DNA from: Minisyncoccota bacterium
GTDB lineage: Bacteria; Patescibacteriota; Minisyncoccia; UBA6257
DNA length: 64,000 bases
NCBI GenBank assembly: GCA_028695015.1
Contig: JAQVJR010000001.1
Location: 33,645-97,644 of the forward strand
Direction: 5' to 3'
Shown: positions 3,441-57,436 of the stretch, in pieces
How the letters are laid out: the number at the start of each line of letters is the position of its first letter
Position numbering within the stretch: position 1 is the stretch's first letter
Notes under the pieces: generated by a model
The model's input: the letters and a program-made list of their open reading frames with translations, nothing else
Told to the model about the DNA's origin: nothing
Database searches by the model: none
Program-made: the position numbers and the translations under genes

Positions 3441-3540
3441 TAAAAAAAATGCTGCCGCTTCTGGCAAGCCAAAAACGACAGCATTATTAGTATAGCAAAT
3501 CTTAAAACCTTGTCAAGTCTTTTGTGGATAACTTAAGAAA
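3441..3540 (-). promoter_or_regulatory. conserved intergenic module copy 4 (hairpin 3449-3485; -10 3489-3494; -35 3511-3516; upstream-gene terminator 3546-3568)
   Basis: Read directly from sequence. Confidence 0.6.
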
Positions 3541-3586
3541 TACAAAACAGGGCTAAAAAGCCCTGTTTTTATCCAATTTCTAATCT

Positions 3587-5824
3587 TTAAACTCTTTTTC
3601 CTCTAAAGATAAAATAAGCTAAGCCACCTAAGGCTAAAACAGCTAATAAAGCTATTATGGCTCCTTTATTAGTTGCTGCTTCTTCTTCGGTTTCTTCTAG
3701 TTCTATTGTTTCTATATCTTCAGTTTCTAAAATTTCCATTACTTCTTCTTCCTCTTCTGGTTCTTGCTCAGAACTAACAGGAGTATCTAAAACATCTCCT
3801 TCTGGCACTGAACCATCATCAGCTAAGGCAATAGATTCTCCTAAAACCAATCCTTCACCTAAGCCAAAACATGTTTCATCAGAAATATCTGGTTTCATTT
3901 CAGGACAAAAGATATTATTAATTGCCCATCTGGTAGTTCTATAAACATAACCAGTAGCCATTTCTTCTGAAGACAAACATCCATTAGCAACCCAAGGAGC
4001 TAAAATATCATCCTTGAGCATGGTTTGGAATGTTTTTACTGCATTAAATGTATCTAAATCATAAATTCCATTAACATCTAAATTCAATCCCAAATATCCA
4101 TTTAAGAAGATTTGGAGTTTTCTAACTTCAAATGGATCATTATTAGCTCCATATTGAATGTATTCATGTAGATAAGGAACACAAGCAACACCAGCTACAA
4201 TACCCTCATCTCTTATGGTAGATTCACCTGCTATAGTACCTGATGAAAAACCTCCGCCTCCACCTCCGCCACCACCAGTAGGAGTTCCTCCAGATTCTTC
4301 GGTTTCTGTGTTAGATTGCTCTTCAGGTGGCTCAACACAACGATATACTTTAAGGTCTAAACTTCCTGTATTATCATCCATAGCTCCTTGGTCTTGATAA
4401 GAATTATACCAAGAATTGTACCAATCAGAAATGACAAAACTAACATTTACTTCTTCTTCTCCACTAATATGATAAGCTTTTTGGTATATATGTTCTGAAT
4501 TATAATCCCCCCAAGTAACTACCCCCATTTTGCCGGTTCCCATATCAGAAAGAAGTGATAACACTCCACGATATGGATTTCCTTTAATGCCTACGTCATC
4601 TCTTGGTATTGTTTTCCAACTATCTTTAGTGCCATAGCCTGCATCTGCTTTTTTATTCTCCTCTTTGCCACTATATTTATACACTCCAGAAACCTCAAAA
4701 AGATAATCGCCTGGATTTAAATCTATATTTTGTCCAATGCTATCTTGAGAATCAATATTTATTTCTTTAAACGGCTCTTCTTCTCTCTTGGTCCCTGACG
4801 GACAATCATGGTTTCCATTATACACAGGAACTAACTTGCACGTTTCCGTACAAAAATTACTTCCATCTTCAGCAACTCCTTCAAGCCCATCACATTCTTC
4901 ATCTCCTTCTTTTTTTCCATTACCACATTCTCCTGCTGCTTCTTCTGGCACTTCTAATACATTATAAGCTATACAATAAACATTTTCAGGCCATTGTGAA
5001 GTGTCGTTTCCTAATTGTATAAATTCTTTATTATCACCATTAACTGCATCCTTATAACAACGAAGAGCTGCAAATTTAGTTGCTCCTTCCATTGCTGGGC
5101 TATTATTTAAATCTTCACTAACCCATAATTGACCACCTTCAGTTAGTTGGTTTTGTTGTTCTGGTTTTAGTTCAGAAAAAGAAATGGGTTCATTAGAATT
5201 TACAGTGCTAACATTTGTTTCTTGTTCTTCATCTGTAGAAATTATAAATTGCCAGCCTCTTGCTAAATAGCAAACTCCAGGAATCTCATCTGGATCAACT
5301 GGCTTACCATTATTGTATGAACTGGGAAAACTATTTTCTTGATAATTAGCAAACTCTGTATATTTTTCCCCAGTAGCATCTAAGTGCTCTGCATTAGCAT
5401 TTCCATTAATATCTCCCCAAGATGGACATATCACTTTTATAAAATGAAAACTGGAGTTTATTGTTTCAGACGATCCATTGTCTCCTCCTGAACTTTCGCC
5501 ACAATACCCATGCTCGTGACAATGATTATGTTCTTGTCCTTGTCCTTGTCCTTGTCCTTGCCCTTGTCCTTGCCCTTGTCCTTGTCCTTGTCCTTGTCCT
5601 TGTCCTTGTCCTTGCCCTTGTCCTTGCCCTTGTCCTTGCCCTTGTCCTTGTCCTTGCCCTTGTCCTTGCCCTTGTCCTTGCCCTTGTCCTTGTCCTTGTC
5701 CTTGCTTATTCCCTGCTTCTATTATCCCTGGCTTCAACATCAATCCATTAGTAATTAACAAACTTAATACTATTACAATTGCAAATGTTTTTGTAAGAAA
5801 TTTTTTGTTCATATTTTTTTTCAA
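3587..5824 (-). CDS. large secreted surface protein: (GQ)32 repeat, Myxococcus-type Cys-rich repeat, peptidoglycan-binding domain, poly-Gly, acidic tail, C-terminal TM anchor
   Basis: 745 aa with signal peptide. A 32x Gly-Gln run comes from the CCTTGY hexanucleotide array. CGNGKKEGDEECDG…C…C resembles the Myxococcus Cys-rich repeat. LQIFLNGYLGLNLDVNGIYDLDTFNAVKTFQ resembles PG_binding_1. There is a GGGGGGGGG run, an EEEEE-rich tail and a C-terminal hydrophobic helix ending RGKRV. Confidence 0.7.
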   Translation of the reverse strand: MKKNMNKKFLTKTFAIVIVLSLLITNGLMLKPGIIEAGNKQGQGQGQGQGQGQGQGQGQGQGQGQGQGQGQGQGQGQGQGQGQGQGQGQGQGQGQGQEHNHCHEHGYCGESSGGDNGSSETINSSFHFIKVICPSWGDINGNANAEHLDATGEKYTEFANYQENSFPSSYNNGKPVDPDEIPGVCYLARGWQFIISTDEEQETNVSTVNSNEPISFSELKPEQQNQLTEGGQLWVSEDLNNSPAMEGATKFAALRCYKDAVNGDNKEFIQLGNDTSQWPENVYCIAYNVLEVPEEAAGECGNGKKEGDEECDGLEGVAEDGSNFCTETCKLVPVYNGNHDCPSGTKREEEPFKEINIDSQDSIGQNIDLNPGDYLFEVSGVYKYSGKEENKKADAGYGTKDSWKTIPRDDVGIKGNPYRGVLSLLSDMGTGKMGVVTWGDYNSEHIYQKAYHISGEEEVNVSFVISDWYNSWYNSYQDQGAMDDNTGSLDLKVYRCVEPPEEQSNTETEESGGTPTGGGGGGGGGFSSGTIAGESTIRDEGIVAGVACVPYLHEYIQYGANNDPFEVRKLQIFLNGYLGLNLDVNGIYDLDTFNAVKTFQTMLKDDILAPWVANGCLSSEEMATGYVYRTTRWAINNIFCPEMKPDISDETCFGLGEGLVLGESIALADDGSVPEGDVLDTPVSSEQEPEEEEEVMEILETEDIETIELEETEEEAATNKGAIIALLAVLALGGLAYFIFRGKRV
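5531..5706. repeat. hexanucleotide microsatellite (CCTTGY)n, ~30 units, encoding (GQ)32 on the minus strand
   Basis: Perfect or near-perfect tandem array. Confidence 0.9.
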
Positions 5825-7111: not shown

Positions 7112-7212
7112 AATAAAAAATGCTGTCGCCCTTGGCAAGCCAAAAACGACAGCATTATTAGTATATCAAATCCAAAACCCTTGTCAAGTCTATTGGGGAT
7201 AACTTTTAAAAT
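7112..7212 (-). promoter_or_regulatory. conserved intergenic module copy 5 (hairpin 7119-7156; -10 7160-7165; -35 7182-7187; terminator 7216-7242)
   Basis: Read directly from sequence. What follows downstream is another promoter and a candidate sRNA, not a protein gene. Confidence 0.6.
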
Positions 7213-7247
7213 GAAAAAGGGACTATATTATATAGTCCCTTTTGATT

Positions 7248-7922
7248 TTAATAGTACTCAATACTTTGTGCTGTTACATAGACCACCCTCTTAGTTGGAG
7301 AGAGTTTAATCTTCACTTGTTTAGCTTTCTTTTCTCCAGCTAATCCTTCCTTCAAGTCTACACATTTGACCACTTGTGAATCATCTTCAAAGGTTATCAT
7401 AAAGCAAACCTTTTCCACTGTCACTTTTTCTCCCTTGAAGTTTTGCATTTCAAAATCTACAAATACATCACCCCAGGTCAAATAGCAACAACAGGGTCCA
7501 GAAGGAGGACAAATTGGACAAACACACTCTGGGCATTCATCACAAATACACTCTGGACATTCATCACATATACACTCTGGGCAATCTTCACAAACAGGAC
7601 AATCTGGGCAACAAGAATCACAAGCAGGGCAAGTTGGACAACAAGAATCACAAGCGGGGCAATTACATGGTGGACATGTAGGTGGTGGACAAGGAGGATA
7701 GCAATAACCACATCTTGTCATCAAATCCCTAGGTAAATCACCATTAGCAACTCTTGTTATGCCTTTTGAAGAGTCACAAGAAACCTCTTGCTCAAAGCCA
7801 GTTACCCAAACTTCTACATCTTCTGTTATTGAAGGAATGATTGATCCACTCTTACATCCAGTTAAGAACAATACCATTAAAACCATTGCTAAGATTAACA
7901 ATCTTTTTCTCATTTTTTTCAC
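7248..7922 (-). CDS. lipoprotein with extreme Cys/Pro-rich tandem-repeat core (CPxC / ICDECPEC units)
   Basis: 224 aa with lipobox LFLTGC. A 75-aa stretch contains about 40 Cys (CYPPCPPPTCPPCNCPACDSCCP…CDECPECICDECPECICDECPECVCPICPP…CCC). Consensus promoter and AGGAGGTG SD lie upstream. Confidence 0.65.
   Translation of the reverse strand: MKKMRKRLLILAMVLMVLFLTGCKSGSIIPSITEDVEVWVTGFEQEVSCDSSKGITRVANGDLPRDLMTRCGYCYPPCPPPTCPPCNCPACDSCCPTCPACDSCCPDCPVCEDCPECICDECPECICDECPECVCPICPPSGPCCCYLTWGDVFVDFEMQNFKGEKVTVEKVCFMITFEDDSQVVKCVDLKEGLAGEKKAKQVKIKLSPTKRVVYVTAQSIEYY
7523..7670. repeat. tandem 24-nt repeats (x3) plus ~33-nt repeats (x2) encoding ICDECPEC / CDSCCPxCPAC units
   Basis: acactctgggcattcatcacaaat, acactctggacattcatcacatat and acactctgggcaatcttcacaaac in tandem. 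Confidence 0.8.
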
Positions 7923-11310: not shown

Positions 11311-11425
11311 TTCTTTCTCTCCTTTCTTTTTTATTTAATTTTCAAAGTTCTTAATTGAGTTATAATATATCTTTATTATAAGTTTGTCAAGGATTAAAGA
11401 TATAAAACTTCCTAAATAATATAAG

Positions 11426-11525
11426 GTAAAAAAATGCTGCCGCTTCTGGCAAGCCAAAAACGACAGCATTATTAGTATATCAAATCTTAAAACCTTGTCA
11501 AGTCTATTGTGGATAACTTAAAACC
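11426..11525 (-). promoter_or_regulatory. conserved intergenic module copy 6 (hairpin 11433-11470; -10 11474-11479; -35 11496-11501; terminator 11521-11542)
   Basis: Read directly from sequence. Confidence 0.6.
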
Positions 11526-11547
11526 AATCTAATATTGGTTTTAATAG

Positions 11548-48144: not shown

Positions 48145-48840
48145 TTATTTTTTAATATAAATTACTATTGTAAATTCTCCTTTTATTTTATCATTTTTTA
48201 TCTTTTCTATCACCCCTTTTATTGTTCCTCGATAAATTGTTTCAAATTTCTTAGTCAATTCACGACAAACCACAATTTCATAATCTAAACCTTCTGCTTT
48301 GTTATAAATATCTTCTAAGGTTTTAATAATCCGATGAGAAGATTCATAAAAAACCACTGGGTGTTTAAAATTCTGTAATTGATAAAATAATTCTTTAAAA
48401 AACTGATTTCTTTTATTCTTACTTGGTGGAAACCCCAAAAAAACAAATTTATCCATTGGAAAACCAGAAATACTAGCCGCCGTTATCAAAGCTGAACAAC
48501 CAGGTATTGGTATAATCTCAAAGTCTTCAAGCTCATTAATTAAAAAACTTATCAATTTATTACCAGGATCTGATATGCCAGGAGTGCCAGCATCAGAAAC
48601 CAAAGCTAAATCCTTACCTTGCTCAAGCAAGGATTTTATCTGATTCATTTTTTTAATAGTCGAGTGCTGATGATAACTCAGAACTGAAGTTTTAATTTCA
48701 AAATGAGATAATAACTTCCTTGTTTTTCTTGTATCTTCACATAAAATCAAATCAACCTCTTGTAAAACTCGTTTTGCTCTTAAAGAAATATCTTCTAAAT
48801 TACCAATTGGTGTAGCTACAATAAATAATTTTCCTATCAT
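48145..48840 (-). CDS. rsmI: 16S rRNA (cytidine1402-2'-O)-methyltransferase
   Basis: Tetrapyrrole-methylase fold with VATPIGNLEDIS…CEDTR. Confidence 0.8.
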   Translation of the reverse strand: MIGKLFIVATPIGNLEDISLRAKRVLQEVDLILCEDTRKTRKLLSHFEIKTSVLSYHQHSTIKKMNQIKSLLEQGKDLALVSDAGTPGISDPGNKLISFLINELEDFEIIPIPGCSALITAASISGFPMDKFVFLGFPPSKNKRNQFFKELFYQLQNFKHPVVFYESSHRIIKTLEDIYNKAEGLDYEIVVCRELTKKFETIYRGTIKGVIEKIKNDKIKGEFTIVIYIKK

Positions 48841-48904
48841 TACAATATTCTTAAATTAATATTTTATACCCTTAACATCATATCAAAAAGAACATAAATT
48901 AAAA

Positions 48905-48943
48905 AATGCTGTTGTCTTTAATAAAGCCAAAAACAACAGCATT
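48905..48943 (-). promoter_or_regulatory. variant module hairpin (GCTGTTG…CAACAGC) without the canonical promoter
   Basis: Stem has a compensatory C:G to T:A change relative to the other copies. Lies between the Cys-module gene and rsmI. Confidence 0.5.
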
Positions 48944-48971
48944 AATGATATTAATAAGGTTGGATTAATTG

Positions 48972-50534
48972 TTAGGAGATTAATCCCCTTAAGAATCCTT
49001 GGAGTTTATCAGGTAGAACAGGAATGATTTCTTGCCACCAAGGAAGGTTAACTGCTTGGACTTCTATGTAGTCTAATTCAGTACCAAGAGTATCTTCCCA
49101 AGTAACACAAGTATTTTCATTGTCTTTGTCATAACAGGCTTTTAATTGATATGTATAGACACCTGGTGTTGTGATATGGAAAGACTTTTCATGATCAATA
49201 GAGCCAACGGTCACATTACCACTAAGAGTTTCATTATCTCCACAATCTTTATCTCCTAATTTACAAGTGATTTCACCCCATTTACAATCACTATTGGTAG
49301 ACCACTTTGCTTCATAATCAACTCCTGTCCAGACATGATTGGGTAATTCAAATTTGTTAATGGAGCATGTGGGGGATGGGAGTGGTGGAGGTGATTTTTT
49401 GCAACTAGCTTGACAAGAACTTGATGAAGAATACTTTCCTGAAGCATCTGGATAGCATTGCCCAGTACTTGTATTGCAAGAATAACGAGTAGAAGGAGTT
49501 GGTTTTTTACAGTTGGCTTGACAAGAACTTAATGAGGTGTAGGGCCCAGAAGGATCTTTAGAGCATTGCCAAGTGGTAGTATTACAAGAATAACGAGTAG
49601 AAGGAGTTGGTTTTTTACAGTTGGTTTGGCAAGAGCTTAATGTAGAATATGACCCTGAGGAACTTTCAGTGCATTGCCAAGTGGTGGTATTGCAGGCATA
49701 ACGAATAGCAGGAGGTGGTAGCTCAGGGGTGGGTGTTCCATTTTCACAATCACTATCTTTTTGGCATTGATCGTCATTAATTGACCGACATGTTTTTGCA
49801 TTTTTTAAACAATGCCAATCTCCCCATAAACCAAGGTATTGCTTATTACAATAATTACAAAACGTACAATTTGCCAAACATGCTTCTTCGGTATAAAAAG
49901 TTGTTTTTAGTGTTTTTTTGTAAACACAGGTCCCATATTTTTGCCCTGAAGAATGTTCGCAATACCAACCAGATTCTTTTCCAAAAGGATCTTCTGTGGT
50001 TGGAACACTAGATCCTCCGCATTGCTCAGGCCCCGTACATTCATCTATGCAAGATCCGGGTGTCAACTCAGATGTAGCTTTGCATTGAGTCCCCAAACAT
50101 TTAAAACATTGCACACCTGAGCAATCACTCTGCCATTCACAAGAATTTGAACAAGGCGAATTAAAAGTTTTTGATTCACATTTACCAAATGAACAAGTCT
50201 TACAGGTATATTTTTCACAAGCTGAACAATTGGTAGTGCATGGTTCTTTTGAATCTATAGTCATGCATTCTCCTCCCATACATTTATGGCATATATAATA
50301 CCCCGATGGATCAACTGCACCTTGCTTTTTAGTAGTGGTTGTCGTAGATGCTGCAGAACATTTTCTTTGACATTCTTCTAAAGTTTTATAATCTCCATCA
50401 TCATAGGTATCCCTATAACATGTTCCGGTTTGCCAATTGCAAACATATGGCTTCTTCGCACCTAAAGCTACTGAATTAGTAAAAAGAATTAAAAAGAAAC
50501 TTATTAATAATATTGTATTTATTCTTTTATTCAT
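48972..50534 (-). CDS. secreted Cys-module protein (tandem ~36-aa TWQC…SSCQxNCKK modules + conserved 135-aa C-terminal domain), cassette copy 1
   Basis: 520 aa with signal peptide and more than 60 Cys. Three near-identical 108-nt DNA repeats. C-terminal 135 aa are about 90% identical to 51740..52951. Confidence 0.7.
   Translation of the reverse strand: MNKRINTILLISFFLILFTNSVALGAKKPYVCNWQTGTCYRDTYDDGDYKTLEECQRKCSAASTTTTTKKQGAVDPSGYYICHKCMGGECMTIDSKEPCTTNCSACEKYTCKTCSFGKCESKTFNSPCSNSCEWQSDCSGVQCFKCLGTQCKATSELTPGSCIDECTGPEQCGGSSVPTTEDPFGKESGWYCEHSSGQKYGTCVYKKTLKTTFYTEEACLANCTFCNYCNKQYLGLWGDWHCLKNAKTCRSINDDQCQKDSDCENGTPTPELPPPAIRYACNTTTWQCTESSSGSYSTLSSCQTNCKKPTPSTRYSCNTTTWQCSKDPSGPYTSLSSCQANCKKPTPSTRYSCNTSTGQCYPDASGKYSSSSSCQASCKKSPPPLPSPTCSINKFELPNHVWTGVDYEAKWSTNSDCKWGEITCKLGDKDCGDNETLSGNVTVGSIDHEKSFHITTPGVYTYQLKACYDKDNENTCVTWEDTLGTELDYIEVQAVNLPWWQEIIPVLPDKLQGFLRGLIS
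49392..49715. repeat. three tandem ~108-nt direct repeats (36-aa Cys modules)
   Basis: Units at 49392-49499, 49500-49607 and 49608-49715 are about 85-95% identical. Confidence 0.8.
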
Positions 50535-50554
50535 GATTTTAAAAAATATGTAAT

Positions 50555-51037
50555 TTATTTAATTAATAATTTACCATCTAAATCTAATAACACAAATTCA
50601 TCTAATTCATGAAAATTATTATCTGGAAAAACTGAAACTTTAATTAATTTAAAAATCTCTTTATCCAAGGGTGTTTCTAATTTACCTAAATTAATACCCA
50701 AAAAAGCAGAACCACTTCTTTCATTGCACACAACCCCTTCTTCATTTAAATCTGTGTAATAACAATAAACAAATGGATCATAAGGAATATCTAATTTTTG
50801 AAAGTTAACATTTATTGATACTAAACTATAAGCTTGAAAATATTCCTGATCAGACGCATCAACCCATTCTTCACCATTAAACAACCAGATTTCATATCCT
50901 TTATCTAAGGTAAAGGGCTCTGGATAAGACTGTTCTTCATCAAGGCTTATTCTTTCTTTATAATAAGTTATTCCTCCAACTGCTATTATTAACAAAAGCG
51001 CTAAAATACCTAAAACAACAATGTATTTTTTCTTCAT
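50555..51037 (-). CDS. signal-anchored small protein, cassette copy 1 partner
   Basis: 160 aa. N-terminus MKKKYIVVLGILALLLIIAVGGITYY is paralogous to that of 52976..53773. Lies 20 nt upstream of 48972..50534. Consensus promoter at 51070-51098. Confidence 0.6.
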   Translation of the reverse strand: MKKKYIVVLGILALLLIIAVGGITYYKERISLDEEQSYPEPFTLDKGYEIWLFNGEEWVDASDQEYFQAYSLVSINVNFQKLDIPYDPFVYCYYTDLNEEGVVCNERSGSAFLGINLGKLETPLDKEIFKLIKVSVFPDNNFHELDEFVLLDLDGKLLIK

Positions 51038-51069
51038 ATATTTAATTTTATTTAAAATCCTCTGTATTA

Positions 51070-51098
51070 ATTATATCTCTTTACTAAGTACTGTCAAG
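51070..51098 (-). promoter_or_regulatory. consensus promoter TTGACA-N17-TATAAT for cassette-1 operon (50555..51037 + 48972..50534)
   Basis: Plus-strand tgtcaa at 51093-51098 and attata at 51070-51075. Confidence 0.55.
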
Positions 51099-51155
51099 CT
51101 CATTAAAAAACAAATAATTAAAAAAGAGGCATTATTTTTATGCCTCTTTTAAGCT

Positions 51156-51533
51156 TCATTCTATGAACTCTACTATGATTTTTGGAACATCAAAAGGATC
51201 ATTTCTTGCCCCTGGGCCCCAAATAATCCTAATTGGGCCTTGAGGATTTATAATGTGTATTTCTGTTATAGTATATTCCTCTCCTTCTATTACTTCTGTA
51301 TATTCTACCATTGAATACCCTTCGTGTTCTGGAGCTATAACCCCCCAAATAAAACCTTCTGTAATCACTTCATTCTGTTTATTCTGCCTGTTCTCAATTT
51401 GATATTTTTCCTTTAAACGCTCTATGCCTTGATTAGACTCTTCTGAAAGAAAATCATAATGGGCATAAGCAAAGCAAGAAAAAACAATTAAAACTAGAAA
51501 CACTAATATTCCTAGAAATATTCCTTTCTTCAT
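51156..51533 (-). CDS. small secreted protein
   Basis: 125 aa with signal peptide, good SD, a promoter shared with 53970..54617, and its own terminator at 51120-51150. Confidence 0.55.
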   Translation of the reverse strand: MKKGIFLGILVFLVLIVFSCFAYAHYDFLSEESNQGIERLKEKYQIENRQNKQNEVITEGFIWGVIAPEHEGYSMVEYTEVIEGEEYTITEIHIINPQGPIRIIWGPGARNDPFDVPKIIVEFIE

Positions 51534-51552
51534 TTTCTTTCACCTCTCTTTT

Positions 51553-51612
51553 GATTTTAAAAGTACTAAAAACTATCTTCATTATACATCTTTAGGTTTA
51601 ATTTGTCAAGAA
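51553..51612 (-). promoter_or_regulatory. promoter + 5'UTR block (TTGACA-N17-TATAAT) shared with 54635-54695
   Basis: About 60 nt nearly identical at the two sites. -35 at 51604-51609, -10 at 51581-51586. Confidence 0.55.
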
Positions 51613-51672
51613 TCATATGTGCTATCTTTTCTTCACAAAACTATGTGTTATTAATTATATACACCAATAAAA

Positions 51673-51711
51673 AATGCTGTTGTCTTTAAATAAGCCAAAA
51701 ACAACAGCATT
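51673..51711 (-). promoter_or_regulatory. variant module hairpin (second copy, inside the duplicated cassette)
   Basis: Near-identical to 48905-48943. Confidence 0.5.
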
Positions 51712-51739
51712 AATGATATTAGTAAGATTGGATTAATTG

Positions 51740-52951
51740 TTAGGAGATTAATCCTCTTAAGAATCCTTGGAGTTTATCAGGCAGAACAGGAATGATTTCT
51801 TGCCACCAAGGAAGGTTAACTGCTTGGACTTCAATGTAGTCTAATCCAGTGCCTAGAGTATCTTCCCAGATATCACAAGTATCTTCATTGTTTTTATCAT
51901 AACAGGCTTTTAATTGATATGTATAGACACCTGGTGTTGTGATATGGAAAGACTTTTCATGATCAATAGAGCCAACTGTTACCTCACCACTAAGATTTTC
52001 GTTATCTCCACAATCTTCATCTCCTAATGTACAAGTAATTTCACCCCATCTACAATCATTACTGGTAGACCACTTTGCTTCATAATCAACTCCTGTCCAG
52101 ACATGATTAGGTAATTCAAACTTGTTAATGAAGCATGTGGGAGATAGGGGTGGTGGAGGTGGCGGTGGAGTACCCTTACAATCTTGGTTAGAACTACAAC
52201 GAGTATAATTAGTAATTCTTGAGCACGAAGAAAGATTAAATGATTTAGACTGACATTTTTCTCCAATACAAACATTGCATTGTATGGAAGAAGTGGGCGT
52301 GGTAGAGGTTTTACACTGACTATCAGAACTACATAAAGTATATCCTGTTACCTGAGAACATGAAGAAACATTAAATGATTTAGATTGGCATTTTTCTCCA
52401 ACGCAGACATTACAAGATATAGAAGAAGGGATAGAAACTGGTTTTCCACAATCACTATCTTTTTGACATTCATCAGTAGGCCTAGTTCCTGTCCAAGATG
52501 CCGGCTTGCAATATAATGTATCTCTATTCCCTGTTAACCATGCCCATGAACCTGGTAAAGGAGTCCTACATTTATTATAAGTTCCACGTGACTGGCACCT
52601 AGCTAAGCATTCAGCCTCTGTAGAATAGTCAACCCTCTTTTGATTTCTGACAAAAACACACCTTCCATCATCTAAACAATTCCATCCATCTTCTGTGTCA
52701 TCAGGAAATACTGATCCAGGGCCAGAATCAGGGCTAGTTCCTGGACCAAAACCGCTATTATCATCACAAGCTGCCTCTTCTATACAGTCTTTCCAACATT
52801 GCTGTTTCCCATTTATAATTTCACATATAGGAGGGCCATAAAGAGTACAATCACCACATGTTATTATTCCAAAAATATTTTCAGGAGAAATAATTAATAA
52901 AATTAAACAAATCAAAGCAAATATTGTTGTAAATATTATTTTTTGTTTCAT
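51740..52951 (-). CDS. secreted Cys-module protein with conserved C-terminal domain, cassette copy 2
   Basis: 403 aa. C-terminal domain is near-identical to copy 1. N-terminal modules differ (two ~45-aa SISCNVCVGEKCQSKSF…SSDSQCK repeats). Confidence 0.7.
   Translation of the reverse strand: MKQKIIFTTIFALICLILLIISPENIFGIITCGDCTLYGPPICEIINGKQQCWKDCIEEAACDDNSGFGPGTSPDSGPGSVFPDDTEDGWNCLDDGRCVFVRNQKRVDYSTEAECLARCQSRGTYNKCRTPLPGSWAWLTGNRDTLYCKPASWTGTRPTDECQKDSDCGKPVSIPSSISCNVCVGEKCQSKSFNVSSCSQVTGYTLCSSDSQCKTSTTPTSSIQCNVCIGEKCQSKSFNLSSCSRITNYTRCSSNQDCKGTPPPPPPPLSPTCFINKFELPNHVWTGVDYEAKWSTSNDCRWGEITCTLGDEDCGDNENLSGEVTVGSIDHEKSFHITTPGVYTYQLKACYDKNNEDTCDIWEDTLGTGLDYIEVQAVNLPWWQEIIPVLPDKLQGFLRGLIS
52190..52450. 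repeat. two tandem ~135-nt direct repeats (45-aa Cys modules)
   Basis: agattaaatgatttagactgacatttttctccaatacaaacattgca… repeated with substitutions. Confidence 0.7.
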
Positions 52952-52975
52952 GTTAATAATAGATTAAACTTATAT

Positions 52976-53773
52976 TTATATAATTGGTTTTCCCATTTGC
53001 CACAAAAGGAAATGAGAACTTAATATTTCTTCTATATCAGAAAATGATCTACTATTTAATATGTTGTTTTTTAGATCTTCGTTATCTGGTACTAAATAAA
53101 TTTTAAGATCAAATAAAGAATCTGTTTCAGGGCCAGGAACAAGCCCACTTAATACTAGGTTAGAACTCAACCAAGCTGAAGACTCTTTGCACATAATGTT
53201 TCCTTCAGGAAATGTAATATAAAAACCCAATGGATCCTTTTCTAGTAATTCTTTTCTAAAAGGATTGATCAACGATGGTGTTGTAGCTATACAAATACTA
53301 TATTTACTTTCTTCCGATTGAAGCAAATCTTTACTTTTTTTTAATAAATCGTCTTTGTTTACTGCCATGGCAACATATTCAGATTGCGATAAAGCTACTA
53401 AATTTTTCACAGAAATAACCACTGGGCGATGTTTATTTTCAATAGTAAAATCACTTTCTTCTTCTGGTGCAACTTTATGTAAACGACAACAATTAGCTAA
53501 AATATCTTCTTCTGTAAACTCATCAACTGAAGCCATAAAATGTGGCGTAGCTGTTCTAGCACAGAAATTTTCAAAAGATTGCACCTCAGAAATAGAAATA
53601 GGGTAATTTTCTATAAACCTAGGAACTGGAACAATCTTAACCTTATTATTAGATAAAATATTTGATTCTTGAACCCTCTCCTTATAATTCTCATTATAAT
53701 AAGTAGTTGTTCCAAAAATAACTATTAATAAAAGCGTTAAAATTCCTAAAATAATAATATATTTTTTATTCAT
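52976..53773 (-). CDS. signal-anchored protein, cassette copy 2 partner
   Basis: 265 aa with paralogous signal-anchor MNKKYIIILGILTLLLIVIFGTTTYY. Lies 24 nt upstream of 51740..52951. Confidence 0.6.
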   Translation of the reverse strand: MNKKYIIILGILTLLLIVIFGTTTYYNENYKERVQESNILSNNKVKIVPVPRFIENYPISISEVQSFENFCARTATPHFMASVDEFTEEDILANCCRLHKVAPEEESDFTIENKHRPVVISVKNLVALSQSEYVAMAVNKDDLLKKSKDLLQSEESKYSICIATTPSLINPFRKELLEKDPLGFYITFPEGNIMCKESSAWLSSNLVLSGLVPGPETDSLFDLKIYLVPDNEDLKNNILNSRSFSDIEEILSSHFLLWQMGKPII

Positions 53774-53969
53774 ATACTTAATTTATTTAAAATTCTTCAT
53801 ATTAATTCTACGCCAAGGATATAAAAAGTCAAATTAAAAAACTAACTTTATCTATATAGAAAACTAATAAATTTAAGACTTCCATTTAGAAAATTACAAA
53901 AACAATATAATTTTAACATTACAAAAAATGAAAAAGAGGCAAATTTTAAATTTTGCCTCTAACTTATTG

Positions 53970-54617
53970 CTACTTTTCATCTTCATCAGGAAAATACAAA
54001 TCACGAAATACCAATCTAGGAAACAAGTTAATTGTTTCGCCAGACACTAATATCCGTGGCAAAATTACAGTGAGATCTAAATCCTTTTTTTGCCTATAAA
54101 TTTTAGCTACCGACATAAACCATTCGCTAAAAACTTTACTAAATTTACTCTTTGAGGAAACAATATCTTGTTGCTCATCTTGCTTGAATTTAATTTTCCA
54201 ACTTTCAAAGCATTTAAATTTTCCTTCCATGTCTTTTTCATACACCCTAACGGAAACTTTATTTTTCTGAGGAGGAAAAACCGCTATTGCAAGGATGGAA
54301 TCGGAAATTTTCCAATCTTCGCGATCTTCTGAAGAATAAAATAATACTGAAATTTGTCCTTCAAAGGGACTAGTGCCTCCGTAATAAAAAGTCCCCGTTG
54401 TCACAAAAATAATTGTCTCTTCGTGCTCAGGAAAACGAAAATTAAATCTTTTTGCCTTTCCTGGAGTAGCCCAGTGCCATTGCCATTTTTCACTATTTAC
54501 CGGAGGTAATTCTTCATCCCATTTATCCCATCCTTCATACTCTTCCTTAGACATAACACTAAAACCTATACAAAACAAAATCAAAATTACCAAAACCACT
54601 TTTCTCATTTTCTTCAC
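53970..54617 (-). CDS. secreted hypothetical protein
   Basis: 215 aa with signal peptide. Shares its promoter/5'UTR with 51156..51533 and has a terminator at 53941-53968. Confidence 0.55.
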   Translation of the reverse strand: MKKMRKVVLVILILFCIGFSVMSKEEYEGWDKWDEELPPVNSEKWQWHWATPGKAKRFNFRFPEHEETIIFVTTGTFYYGGTSPFEGQISVLFYSSEDREDWKISDSILAIAVFPPQKNKVSVRVYEKDMEGKFKCFESWKIKFKQDEQQDIVSSKSKFSKVFSEWFMSVAKIYRQKKDLDLTVILPRILVSGETINLFPRLVFRDLYFPDEDEK

Positions 54618-54634
54618 TTCCTTTCCTAATTTTA

Positions 54635-54695
54635 AATTTTAAAAGTACTAAAAACTACCTTAATTATACATCTTTAGGTTTAATTTGTCAATATC
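54635..54695 (-). promoter_or_regulatory. second copy of shared promoter + 5'UTR block
   Basis: -35 at 54686-54691, -10 at 54663-54668. Confidence 0.55.
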
Positions 54696-54710
54696 ATAAA
54701 TATAGCTCTT

Positions 54711-56518: not shown

Positions 56519-57436
56519 TTAAGGTTGAAACAATTCCTCTGGCTCAAACTCTACTTTTTTTATATCAGGAAATTGCTTAGCTGTTTCCTCAATTTGATAC
56601 CATAAAACACTAGCCCGACAAGAACCCCCAGAGGTTTTATTCAAAGAATCATTAAAAGTTAAAACCAAAGTACCATCAGCTCTTAAAACTGTTGATTCAA
56701 GAGTTAATCCCTCTAATGGAAATTCTGTTGTTATTCCTTGAGCTAATTGCTCTGAAGATAAATTTTCTTTACCTTTTAATAAAATATTTATAACTTCTGG
56801 AGTAGATGTTCGATTAACTGAAATTTCTTTTTCTATGGCCACTAAACCATCACGACTGCATTTAATATTACCTGATGCATCTTTATCTAATTCTGGATTA
56901 TAATAATAAAGTAAAATCTTTGTTTTAGGGCTTTCAAATTTAATAGGAATTTCATATATTTTCTGATTTTCAGGCAAGCCAGAAGGATTAGCACTTAGAA
57001 AACGTAACCATCCTGTATCTGAAGAAAATCCAGAAAATTCTAATTCTCCCTCAAAAGCCACAAAATCTTCAGTCATCCAATTATCCTTGGCTGTTAAAAT
57101 TGCTGTTCCTGCTAAATAGTCATATTCATCATATAATTCAGCACTGAATTGACCCTCAAAATACCAAGAACCTTTTGCTTGTCCTTCTATCTTAAAAGGA
57201 CTATTCATTGTTTCCTCTTTCTTCGGAGAAAAAACAAAAATTCCTTCTGCTTCTCCTGGGCATAAATCAAATTCACATTTAGGGGGTTTTCTACCAACAA
57301 AAGAACCATCAGGACATTCTTTAGCTTCTTGTGTGCAAACTATTTCCCCTTCATCTCTATTTAGAAAATAATAACCAGTTCCAAGTAAAATTAATCCTAA
57401 TAAAATTAAAATAATTGTTAAATATGTTTTATTCAT
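56519..57436 (-). CDS. secreted protein, possible Gmad2/GerMN-like domains
   Basis: 305 aa, signal-anchored. Domain call is weak. Confidence 0.45.
   Translation of the reverse strand: MNKTYLTIILILLGLILLGTGYYFLNRDEGEIVCTQEAKECPDGSFVGRKPPKCEFDLCPGEAEGIFVFSPKKEETMNSPFKIEGQAKGSWYFEGQFSAELYDEYDYLAGTAILTAKDNWMTEDFVAFEGELEFSGFSSDTGWLRFLSANPSGLPENQKIYEIPIKFESPKTKILLYYYNPELDKDASGNIKCSRDGLVAIEKEISVNRTSTPEVINILLKGKENLSSEQLAQGITTEFPLEGLTLESTVLRADGTLVLTFNDSLNKTSGGSCRASVLWYQIEETAKQFPDIKKVEFEPEELFQP

Follow-up and report, generated by a model that had tools for sequence, protein, structure and literature searches.

The Csc/WxL clusters of Lactobacillales, Listeria and Bacillus are among the described systems closest to the gene cassettes reported here: they are multi-copy, encode exported proteins only, and join, in a proposed surface complex, co-encoded small membrane- or wall-anchored partners to secreted proteins whose common, conserved C-terminal domain is assumed to keep them attached to the cell surface without a covalent bond (Siezen et al. 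2006, PMC1534035; Hassan & Williamson 2022, PMC9772566). Our cassettes have a similar organization but no homology to these clusters, as WxL, DUF916 and DUF3324 were not detected in them; their variable part consists of small Cys modules, their C-terminus of an Ig-like sandwich and a 25-aa invariant tail, their partner is anchored N-terminally, and their host is a CPR bacterium. In Giardia VSPs, a variable extracellular part with ~10% Cys and CxxC motifs is joined to a near-invariant C-terminal end made of a true TM helix and CRGKA. VSPs are described as a large paralog family with shuffling or recombination among paralogs (PMC3656445, PMC2996952), a pattern also seen in our cassettes; however, VSPs are eukaryotic and unrelated in sequence, and the cassettes lack a TM segment at the C-terminus and encode a separate membrane partner. 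The logic also resembles that of cohesin-dockerin pairs in cellulosomes, where a surface-anchored beta-sandwich binds the conserved C-terminal docking module of many secreted proteins, but the cassettes show no dockerin or cohesin sequence match, the resemblance of the partner to cohesins in Foldseek is weak and not significant (prob ~0.2), and the cargo is non-enzymatic. Within CPR bacteria, large Cys-rich extracellular proteins of Peribacteria/CPR, with a signal peptide, ~7% Cys, clustered genes and strain variation, have been read as attachment factors (Anantharaman et al. 2016, PMC4736985); by their published description, they are much larger (~1,650 aa on average) and are not said to share a C-terminal domain, a tail or a partner. 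A predicted disulfide-forming protein family is common in CPR genomes and often adjacent to VKOR (bioRxiv 10.1101/335083).

The cassettes lie in a window of 64,000 nt from a Minisyncoccota bacterium (GCA_028695015.1, JAQVJR010000001.1, positions 33,645-97,644), whose own numbering is used throughout. Copies A and B are neighbouring tandem units of three genes each that diverged anciently, with all genes, promoters and operon terminators on the (-) strand. A first-pass annotation of the sequence had proposed a recent duplication of a two-gene cassette; its two operons, each with a small partner gene and a large gene 20-24 nt further on, agree with ours in their coordinates, but a third gene belongs to each unit. 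In cassette B, the partner gene (52976..53773) and the large gene (51740..52951) form a bicistronic unit with a spacing of 24 nt, preceded by a sigma70-like, promoter-like site (53805..53832, 10/12 consensus) and closed by an intrinsic terminator (51673..51711; 17-bp stem, T-run; dG -24.8 kcal/mol, z -6.2). The operon of cassette A consists of a partner gene (50555..51037; protein identical to NCBI PHG13_00505) and, 20 nt downstream, the large gene (48972..50534; MDD3491444.1 / PHG13_00500, annotated 'hypothetical protein'), between a sigma70-like promoter (51070..51097, 12/12 consensus) and its own terminator (48905..48943; 17-bp stem, T-run; dG -19 kcal/mol, z -4.6). Gene 1 of each cassette is transcribed separately, 5' of the operon: in B (53970..54617) from a TTGACA-17-TATAAT promoter (54663..54691, 12/12) to a terminator at 53935-53960, and in A (51156..51533) from a 12/12 promoter (51581..51609) to a terminator at 51122-51150. 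Consensus promoters and hairpin terminators thus bound four transcription units. None of the six encoded proteins matched a curated family in Pfam or NCBIfam.

The large proteins were initially credited with more than 60 cysteines, but the actual numbers are 50 in the 520-aa protein of A (9.6%) and 33 in the 403-aa protein of B (8.2%). In A, the signal peptide is followed by a 4-Cys module, three 6-Cys modules, a further 4-Cys module, a CQKDSDC element, three 36-aa 4-Cys modules, a Pro linker and the constant C-terminal domain; in B, by a 6-Cys module, a 4-Cys module, the CQKDSDC element, two 45-aa 6-Cys modules, the linker and the same constant domain. Three 108-nt tandem units (49387..49719, (-); TRF score 384, 80% matches; dS 0.6-0.9, omega 0.23-0.31) encode the YxCNTxTWQC...GxYxSLSSCQxNCKK modules of A, and two 135-nt units (52221..52428, (-); 52221-52293 and 52356-52428, 82%; dS 1.7, omega 0.17) the 45-aa modules of B. 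Both repeats had been recognized at the outset and were taken to be rapidly diversifying; their dS of 0.6-1.7 instead marks them as old, and their omega of 0.17-0.31 (about 0.2-0.3) indicates purifying selection, not fast diversification by point mutation.

An even number of cysteines is expected if all are disulfide-bonded, and after the signal peptide the two large proteins of the window do have even counts. In the family as a whole, even counts in 28/48 proteins are no significant excess (p = 0.16). The family-wide result, the presence of CxxC in 6-Cys modules and the origin of the samples, which we take to be possibly anoxic and of groundwater or landfill type, would also suit extracellular metal-binding or redox proteins whose cysteines are metal or cofactor ligands. 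We regard this as very improbable given the even counts in the window, the lack of haem (CxxCH) or ferredoxin-type Cys spacing in the modules, the absence of matches to metal-binding families, and the Thr/Ser/Pro linkers and Ig-like domains typical of surface stalks.

The nearly identical 3' ends reported on first pass, hairpin included, correspond to a gap-free segment of 494 nt with 93.1% identity (49393-48900 in A versus 52161-51668 in B, (-)), of which 422 nt are coding and 72 nt lie 3' of the gene, covering the constant C-terminal domain, the tail and the terminator. Only four colinear islands connect the units (93 nt, 86%; 131 nt, 79%; 32 nt, 91%; 494 nt, 93%). The 93-nt island covers the gene-1 promoter regions (54609-54698 versus 51525-51617), and the partner genes are alignable over their first 131 nt and not beyond. 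At the protein level, the partners are ~23% identical in the family alignment, match each other weakly in BLASTP (E = 0.005), and are ancient paralogs of two subfamilies; each is closer to a partner from another organism (41% to that of locus L022 for A, 56% to that of L009 for B) than to its neighbour. The units are therefore mosaics and not the product of a simple recent duplication. Had a two-gene operon recently been duplicated in tandem, with fast subsequent divergence of the N-terminal modules, this would explain the adjacent, colinear units, the 93% identical 3' ends and the common terminator. Such a duplication is contradicted, however, by the very uneven divergence of partners and C-terminal domain (dS 0.18 for the latter), by purifying selection on the modules, and by unrelated lineages in which, again, a single C-terminal domain is found with many different N-termini, leaving it scarcely credible. 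The repeat itself is real and not an assembly artefact, since a contig from an independent metagenome of another sample (L025) spans both copies at 99.95% identity.

The constant domain defines a rare and dynamic family, not a ubiquitous, static one. A profile search returned 123 matches among 1.84 billion representatives, in ~80 of which the domain lies at the extreme C-terminus, nearly always with the same tail. The large proteins form an unnamed family of ~80 clusters at 50% identity from Pacebacteria/Paceibacterota-type MAGs, and all occurrences found of the three-gene set are in one small group of Patescibacteria/CPR, bacteria of ultra-small size. Members start with a Sec signal, continue with 4-Cys and 6-Cys modules in a variable series, and end in the Ig-like beta-sandwich and the tail. 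The combination of a constant C-terminal module with a variable Cys-rich N-terminus proved to be family-wide: in 28 sequence pairs, which come from several distinct groups of relatives, C-terminal domains are at least 85% identical and N-terminal regions at most 32%. Gene order is conserved as well. First, an N-anchored beta-sandwich partner lies directly 5' of the large gene in 12/12 independent loci found via the C-terminal domain, as expected of the cognate membrane partner postulated earlier. Second, in 3/3 distinct loci found via the partner, a family large gene follows, with the tail visible where the contig is long enough (L034). Third, nearly every locus has, 5' of these two, a further small gene for an exported protein or lipoprotein. 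Recombination, also postulated earlier, is evident from the mosaic cassettes and from a rearrangement (REARRANGEMENT) in a related strain (L009), where a B-like gene directly adjoins the rsmI flank found 3' of A in the window. In several assemblies, long contigs end inside these genes.

Variable multi-copy loci paired with a small membrane protein also resemble toxin-immunity arrangements, disulfide-rich secreted modules of small size are characteristic of toxins and inhibitors, and two family members carry HINT or pretoxin-HINT domains. The large proteins might accordingly be released effectors (Cys-rich toxins, bacteriocins or host-manipulating factors) with the membrane protein as an immunity or export partner. 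We find this improbable: the polarity is the reverse of that of polymorphic toxins, since in these cassettes it is the N-terminus that varies and the C-terminus that stays the same, and the partner gene comes first; the partner ectodomain is a large beta-sandwich and not a compact immunity fold; the proteins are 350-900 aa long with repetitive, stalk-like modules; and no toxin, bacteriocin or defence family was matched in Pfam, NCBIfam, PADLOC or PHROGs.

Both partners begin with a strongly hydrophobic segment (Kyte-Doolittle 2.6-2.9), supporting the first-pass assignment as signal-anchored proteins. In the predicted structure, this segment lies within a long helix that spans residues 3-39, and it is the best-conserved region of the partner family. 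The B partner (265 aa; N-terminal TM anchor MNKKYIIILGILTLLLIVIFGTTTYYNE) belongs to a 'long' subfamily, and its AF2 model (pLDDT 86.4) predicts an alpha/beta plus beta-sandwich ectodomain; the A partner (160 aa), likewise with an N-terminal TM anchor, belongs to a 'short' one. The gene-1 product of B has 215 aa, a hydrophobic signal at its N-terminus and no family match. The 125-aa exported protein of A belongs to a small family with relatives (35-51% identity) encoded 5' of the cassettes of L018, L030 and L034.

The constant domain is predicted to be an Ig-like beta-sandwich in both large proteins (A, residues 388-495, 49050..49373; B, residues 271-378, 51818..52141; both (-)), though its AF2 model is of low confidence (pLDDT 57) and leaves the tail unmodelled. 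As first reported, it matches no family in Pfam or NCBIfam. The tail that follows (NLPWWQEIIPVLPDKLQGFLRGLIS; A, 48975..49049; B, 51743..51817; both (-)) is the most conserved stretch of the family, almost invariant over ~25 aa (NLPWW[QR]EIIPVL..GFLRG). Its residues are fixed while synonymous codons differ and omega is 0.12; constraint therefore acts on the protein. The tail contains no TM segment, its longest uncharged run being 6-10 residues, and its predicted membrane-interface affinity is weak (-0.4 to -3 kcal/mol), which favours a role in protein docking over a lipid anchor.

Alternatively, the tail could be a new C-terminal sorting signal, cleaved by a dedicated Rce1-like/CPBP intramembrane protease or sortase-like enzyme, with the protein then anchored covalently or by lipid and the upstream membrane protein serving as a folding or export helper. 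In LPXTG/sortase systems and in MYXO-CTERM, JDVT-, Synerg- and CGP-CTERM with their CPBP/Rce1-like 'myxosortases', diverse exported proteins carry at their extreme C-terminus a short invariant motif, then a hydrophobic and finally a basic stretch, and several such signals are predicted to be processed by CPBP proteases (Haft 2023, bioRxiv 10.1101/2023.06.07.544157). The tail, conserved at the protein level as it is, resembles a miniature of this tripartite plan (NLPWW[QR]E, hydrophobic IIPVLPGFL, basic RGIWR), and an Rce1-like gene (PF02517, E ~1e-15) lies immediately 3' of the large gene in four lineages (L005, L007/L036, L012, L020), which gives this reading some probability. Several observations nevertheless make it unlikely. 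The hydrophobic part falls short of membrane-spanning length, some members stop right after IIPVLPGF/S, and the motif always occurs together with the Ig-like domain. Unlike all four CPBP-linked signals, the tail has no invariant Cys; it is not LPXTG and matches no NCBIfam sorting-domain model. The CPBP gene lies behind a terminator-like hairpin with its own -10 box, is present beside just one cassette site out of three or four, and is absent from the 64-kb window; it is a well-conserved ortholog (67-88% identical), and its position may reflect nothing more than the synteny of a housekeeping gene.

We favour, at roughly even odds (a probability of about 0.5), a CPR-lineage-specific, recombining and swappable surface-display cassette in which the constant end of the large protein docks on the anchored partner. 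Gene 1 supplies a small exported protein from a transcription unit with its own promoter and terminator. The product of gene 2 is a membrane protein of type II that crosses the membrane once, through a conserved N-terminal TM helix, and has a predicted beta-sandwich ectodomain. The co-transcribed gene 3 encodes a Sec-exported protein whose N-terminus combines two kinds of Cys modules, with numbers and order that differ between members, and whose constant rear comprises the Pro linker, the Ig-like beta-sandwich and the ~25-aa invariant tail. After export, domain and tail would dock on the co-encoded partner, keeping the large protein at the surface, with the gene-1 product perhaps a second docking site. 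Three constant stretches would serve as homology arms: the promoter of gene 1, the start of the partner gene that codes for the TM segment, and the C-terminal domain with its terminator. Across these, paralogs within and between genomes would swap or convert segments, yielding mosaics, copy-number variants and one C-terminus with many N-termini. Three observations sit less easily with this model. The family-wide test for even Cys is not significant; the Rce1-like protease beside some cassettes suits enzymatic sorting at least as well; and partner subtype does not follow C-terminal-domain subtype, long and short partners occurring with the same domain. If the partner ectodomain is what the tail docks on, the site must fall within its few conserved positions or within the TM/juxtamembrane segment.

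Of the original interpretation, the constant/variable design, the membrane partner and recombination are retained in this model. The outward-facing variable stalk, probably stiffened by disulfides, would act as an adhesin or recognition surface.

In the window, a stretch of small bacterial chromosome (GC ~31%) that carries nearly all its genes on the minus strand and also holds a ribosomal-protein operon, tRNAs and RNase P RNA, the architecture described by the first-pass annotation proved to be real and, for the most part, correctly read. Two bicistronic units lie on the minus strand: a 160-aa protein followed after a 20-nt gap by a 520-aa protein in cassette A, and a 265-aa protein followed after a 24-nt gap by a 403-aa protein in cassette B. 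A sigma70-type promoter stands ahead of each unit, with a perfect 12/12 match in A and 10/12 in B, and a 17-bp hairpin plus T-run closes it; these terminator hairpins fold much better than their shuffled controls do (z = -4.6 and -6.2). The cassettes had been described as two-gene units, but each has a third, upstream gene for a small exported protein with a perfect promoter and a terminator of its own, encoding 125 aa in cassette A (51156-51533, minus strand) and 215 aa in cassette B (53970-54617, minus strand). All six products carry an N-terminal signal or anchor. The large proteins contain 50 (A) and 33 (B) cysteines rather than the 60 or more first reported. The cassette A partner and large protein are identical to PHG13_00505 and PHG13_00500 of a 'Candidatus Pacebacteria bacterium' MAG at NCBI, both of which are annotated as hypothetical.

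Several features elsewhere in the window were recorded alongside the cassettes. A ~95-nt module occurs in four minus-strand copies (~372-480, 3441-3550, 7112-7220 and 11423-11535), each with a near-perfect sigma70 promoter (TTGACA-17-TATACT) leading immediately into a GC-containing hairpin and a T-run, with stems that vary at a few positions from copy to copy. The terminators of both large Cys-rich genes are variants of its hairpin, and the module is also found at 90% identity in L007, a related contig outside the window. It has no match in Rfam; a tiny RNA gene and a promoter-attenuator module are both conceivable. A separate predicted lipoprotein of 224 aa with 32 cysteines (14%; 7248-7922, minus strand) is without the NLPWW tail and gave no family match, and a 745-aa ORF (3587-5824, minus strand) without a significant Pfam match contains a long, very regular short-period repeat around 5526 that reads CPCPCP... 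on the opposite strand. Gmad2 and Germane domains occur in a 305-aa exported protein encoded a few genes upstream of the cassettes (56519-57436, minus strand); in the syntenic loci L030-L032 its position is taken by a shorter Germane-domain gene.

Cassettes A and B are mosaics of conserved and unalignable sequence. The last 422 coding nt of the large genes and the next 72 nt are 93.1% identical without gaps. When the 3-kb units were aligned, this 494-nt segment (C-terminal domain and terminator, 93%) was one of only four colinear islands, the others covering the promoter and 5' end of gene 1 (93 nt, 86%), the partner gene 5' UTR and TM-coding start (131 nt, 79%) and the CQKDSDC element (32 nt, 91%); the remainder could not be aligned. 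The repeat copies are genuine: L025, a contig from a different sample (JGI sample 3300044603), runs through both (window 52680-48799) at 99.95% identity, and four more contigs from other samples fit parts of cassette A at 99.9-100%, which rejects an assembly artefact. The first-pass annotation had proposed a recent duplication. The C-terminal domains differ by a dS of 0.18 and a dN of 0.05, whereas the partner proteins are only ~23% identical in the family alignment (a weak BLASTP match, E = 0.005) and have their closest relatives elsewhere, at L022 for A (41%) and at L009 for B (56%). Divergence this uneven rules out a single recent duplication, and simple duplication fits less well; gene conversion or recombinational exchange at the conserved ends can account for the pattern.

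Comparison with related loci revealed structural variation of the same elements. In L009, from a related strain with a ~91% identical flank, a B-type cassette is joined straight to the rsmI flank found downstream of cassette A in the window, the product expected of recombination between the two 494-nt repeats. A third cassette (L007/L036), from the same metagenome as a 99.9% copy of the window locus, has a C-terminal-domain coding segment 98% identical to that of cassette A, while its gene 1 is for a lipoprotein and its head and 199-aa partner differ from those of A. Cassettes sit among housekeeping genes at three or four positions on the chromosome, if not more. One is upstream of rsmI-prs and another follows rplJL; a third has a type IV pilus cluster on one side and, on the other, an Rce1-like gene and then lgt and parAB. 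The last lies immediately upstream of parAB and may be the third position lacking the Rce1-like gene and lgt. In several assemblies long contigs terminate inside cassette genes. Assembly GCA_028718665.1 matches the window over 10.2 kb at 100% identity, and its 220-kb contig begins within the repeated segment at window position 51986. Several MAGs have contigs, among them ones of 220, 39 and 22 kb, with an end within the large gene or its constant domain: L004 1-109 and L005 1-103 (genome CAYRXA01), L001 1-247 and the 3' ends of L030-L033. The cassette family is thus a recurrent assembly breakpoint, and the locus accounts for the breaks in assemblies of these genomes.

The variable part of the large proteins is their N-terminal region, which is built from two module types, one with four cysteines (I; YxCNxxTxxC...GxYxxLxxCxxxC) and one with six (II; CxxCx4-7Cx8-10Cx3-8Cx5C). 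Together with the CQKDSDC element (X), they are ordered I-II-II-II-I-X-I-I-I in protein A and II-I-X-II-II in protein B, and the tandem arrays of 3 x 108 nt and 2 x 135 nt are present as first described. Among 99 family sequences, 36 contain the 4-Cys and 25 the 6-Cys module. In 28 sequence pairs from across the family, which belong to several distinct groups of related proteins, the C-terminal domains are 85-99% identical and the N-terminal regions at most 32%. The window's tandem modules are old and under purifying selection (dS 0.6-1.7, omega 0.17-0.31), with no sign of positive selection, so that diversity arises from module composition and not from fast point substitution. A family-wide test for even cysteine numbers, as an indicator of disulfides, was not significant, and neither the Myxococcus-type cysteine-rich repeat (TIGR02232) nor any other named Cys-rich repeat was matched in NCBIfam or Pfam. 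A metal-binding reading of the cassettes fits less well.

Opposite this variable front stands a constant C-terminal end. Its profile matched 123 proteins in a search of 1.84 billion representatives, and in about 80 of them, each representing one 50%-identity cluster, the domain sits at the extreme C-terminus. Of these ~80, nearly all share the same tail, with the consensus A[LIV]NLP[WF]W[QR]EIIP[VN]L.GFLRG[IL][WF]R. This exhaustive search recovered longer family members absent from a word-indexed protein search, whose 4 and 24 matches, mostly short, underestimate the family; a scan of a genome collection used 'PWWQEII' only and missed the commoner 'PWWREII', making its 5 loci a lower bound. 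The DNA for the tail core comes in ten versions. Because codons for N/H, L, P, Q, E and I vary synonymously while the residues are fixed, and omega between the A and B tails is 0.12, the constraint acts on the peptide and not on the DNA.

Database comparison placed the proteins in no named family. The six window proteins gave nothing significant against Pfam, NCBIfam, PADLOC or PHROGs, and profiles of the C-terminal domain, the partner and both Cys modules matched no PDB sequence. The AF2 model of the C-terminal domain is weak (pLDDT 57), and its fold matches would mean no more than 'Ig-like sandwich'; hhalign found the partner and this domain to be unrelated. In the literature we found general remarks on Cys-rich CPR proteins and no account of this family or of the NLPWW motif. 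The cassettes are a new, unnamed, lineage-restricted family of mosaic, putative surface-protein genes with a distinctive invariant C-terminal motif, and would belong to a kind already known, multi-gene variable cell-surface complexes.

The partner, an N-terminally anchored protein of 160-265 aa, is encoded directly upstream of the large gene in 12/12 loci recovered via the C-terminal domain with enough upstream sequence, two of which have an additional Cys-rich ORF between the two genes. Extra exported proteins encoded between partner and large gene at two loci (L015 4348-5091, L018 4679-5308) have in common a different C-terminal motif, GCPSGQ[TV]KPH..C, perhaps a second type of tail. In the reverse search, a large family gene followed the partner at the loci recovered. 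Farther upstream there is usually a ~145-176-aa lipoprotein or a homolog of the cassette A 125-aa protein. Clustering at 90% leaves at least 55 members in the partner family, which comprises short and long subtypes and has no Pfam domain. Its N-terminal segment MNINKKYIIIFGTLILLLVIITGAITYYNEK is nearly invariant and its ectodomain variable, the most conserved part being the TM and juxtamembrane segment; partner subtype and C-terminal-domain subtype do not co-vary.

How the large protein would be retained at the surface can be approached through the tail. Its longest run without D, E, K or R is 6-10 residues, with basic residues present, so it is unable to span a membrane. The window version has a predicted interfacial affinity of -0.4 kcal/mol and a net charge of 0; this near-zero free energy weakens its reading as a lipid anchor. 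Residue-level invariance in a peptide that does not span the membrane and has little predicted affinity for its interface points to recognition by a protein, for which the co-transcribed anchored partner would be the simplest candidate. We favour docking on this partner, a step we infer from these properties: the constant tail would dock on the co-encoded membrane-anchored protein, and the Cys-module stalk would be the exposed, exchangeable part.

The main rival, a lead of lower probability, is that an Rce1-like/CPBP intramembrane protease would process the tail as a sorting signal. Genes for such proteases (PF02517, E about 1e-15) lie immediately downstream of the large gene in four lineages (L005 145-804; L007 3463-4098, equal to L036 7410-8045; L012 2961-3566; L020 579-1178), and the tail has a miniature motif-hydrophobic-basic layout; processing of several C-terminal sorting signals has been predicted for the CPBP family (bioRxiv 10.1101/2023.06.07.544157). 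However, the protease gene stands behind a terminator-like hairpin with its own promoter, occurs at just one of the cassette sites and is absent from the 64-kb window. The tail also has neither the TM segment nor the invariant Cys of CPBP-linked signals: such a Cys in the signature motif defines MYXO-, JDVT-, Synerg- and CGP-CTERM (bioRxiv 10.1101/2023.06.07.544157), and there is none in the last ~25 residues of any listed member. At this site, the Rce1-like gene is followed by a convergent ORF, annotated lgt (PF01790) in L036 and L037; L036 also has a type IV pilus cluster (pilM/O/B) on the upstream side and, farther downstream, parAB.

Other named systems were also compared with the cassettes. 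In all members the tail motif, NLPWW[QR]E, has W and Q/R at the T and G positions of an LPXTG-type sortase signal; there was no NCBIfam match to an LPXTG anchor, and of the sortase-type membrane-spanning segment and basic tail, the spanning segment is absent. The type IX secretion tail (Por_Secre_tail, PF18962/TIGR04183) was not matched in Pfam or NCBIfam, and CPR bacteria are not known to have a T9SS. Dockerin (PF00404) and cohesin (PF00963) gave no Pfam matches, and Foldseek compared the partner to cohesins with a probability of about 0.2 and E > 0.1. For WxL domains and DUF916/DUF3324, no Pfam match at E <= 1 exceeded chance level in the six window proteins. Like WxL/Csc clusters, the cassettes encode exported proteins only and are multi-copy (two in the window and a third in the same sample), and the logic of the proposed docking resembles that of Csc/WxL clusters (PMC1534035, PMC9772566) or cohesin-dockerin display.

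Unlike polymorphic toxins, the cassettes have reversed polarity, with a constant C-terminus and the partner upstream. For 67 family members and the third-gene homologs, Pfam gave no significant match beyond two members with HINT-type domains and some scattered weak matches. No other toxin domain was found, and a toxin-immunity reading fits less well. The HINT/intein-like (pretoxin-HINT) domains lie N-terminal to the constant domain. The constant C-terminus also differs from the targets of diversity-generating retroelements, and the only repeats in 48700-54000 are the in-frame tandem modules and the paralog segment. The docking model, with its exposed stalk, recalls the part in attachment that has been suggested for Peribacteria Cys-rich proteins (PMC4736985), and it is plausible in view of a predicted disulfide-forming protein family widespread in CPR (bioRxiv 10.1101/335083).

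A further proposal goes beyond docking and is, in our view, possible though rather unlikely as a whole: NLPWW[QR]EIIPVL..GFLRG and the predicted Ig-like domain might form an undescribed sorting or docking signal of a Patescibacteria lineage, read by a partner or a protease, on which cassettes swap Cys-module 'heads' to vary the surface. The reader would be the partner's conserved TM/juxtamembrane segment or the adjoining Rce1-like protease, and recombination would exchange 'heads' on a constant 'foot', varying the episymbiont cell surface. If true, head swapping would change host range or evade recognition by host or phage.

Much of bacterial diversity belongs to the Patescibacteria (CPR), many of which are believed to live attached to other cells. 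Type IV pili apart, the molecules that mediate and diversify this contact are, to our knowledge, mostly unknown. The cassette is compact, strongly promoted and recognisable by sequence, with one constant and one variable end, and its C-terminal motif can be searched for to find such proteins. It also offers testable alternatives for anchoring, tail-partner docking and protease-mediated sorting; if the tail is a new sorting signal, it would extend the catalogue of prokaryotic surface-attachment systems. In one CPR lineage, surface recognition and variation have a concrete candidate in the cassette.
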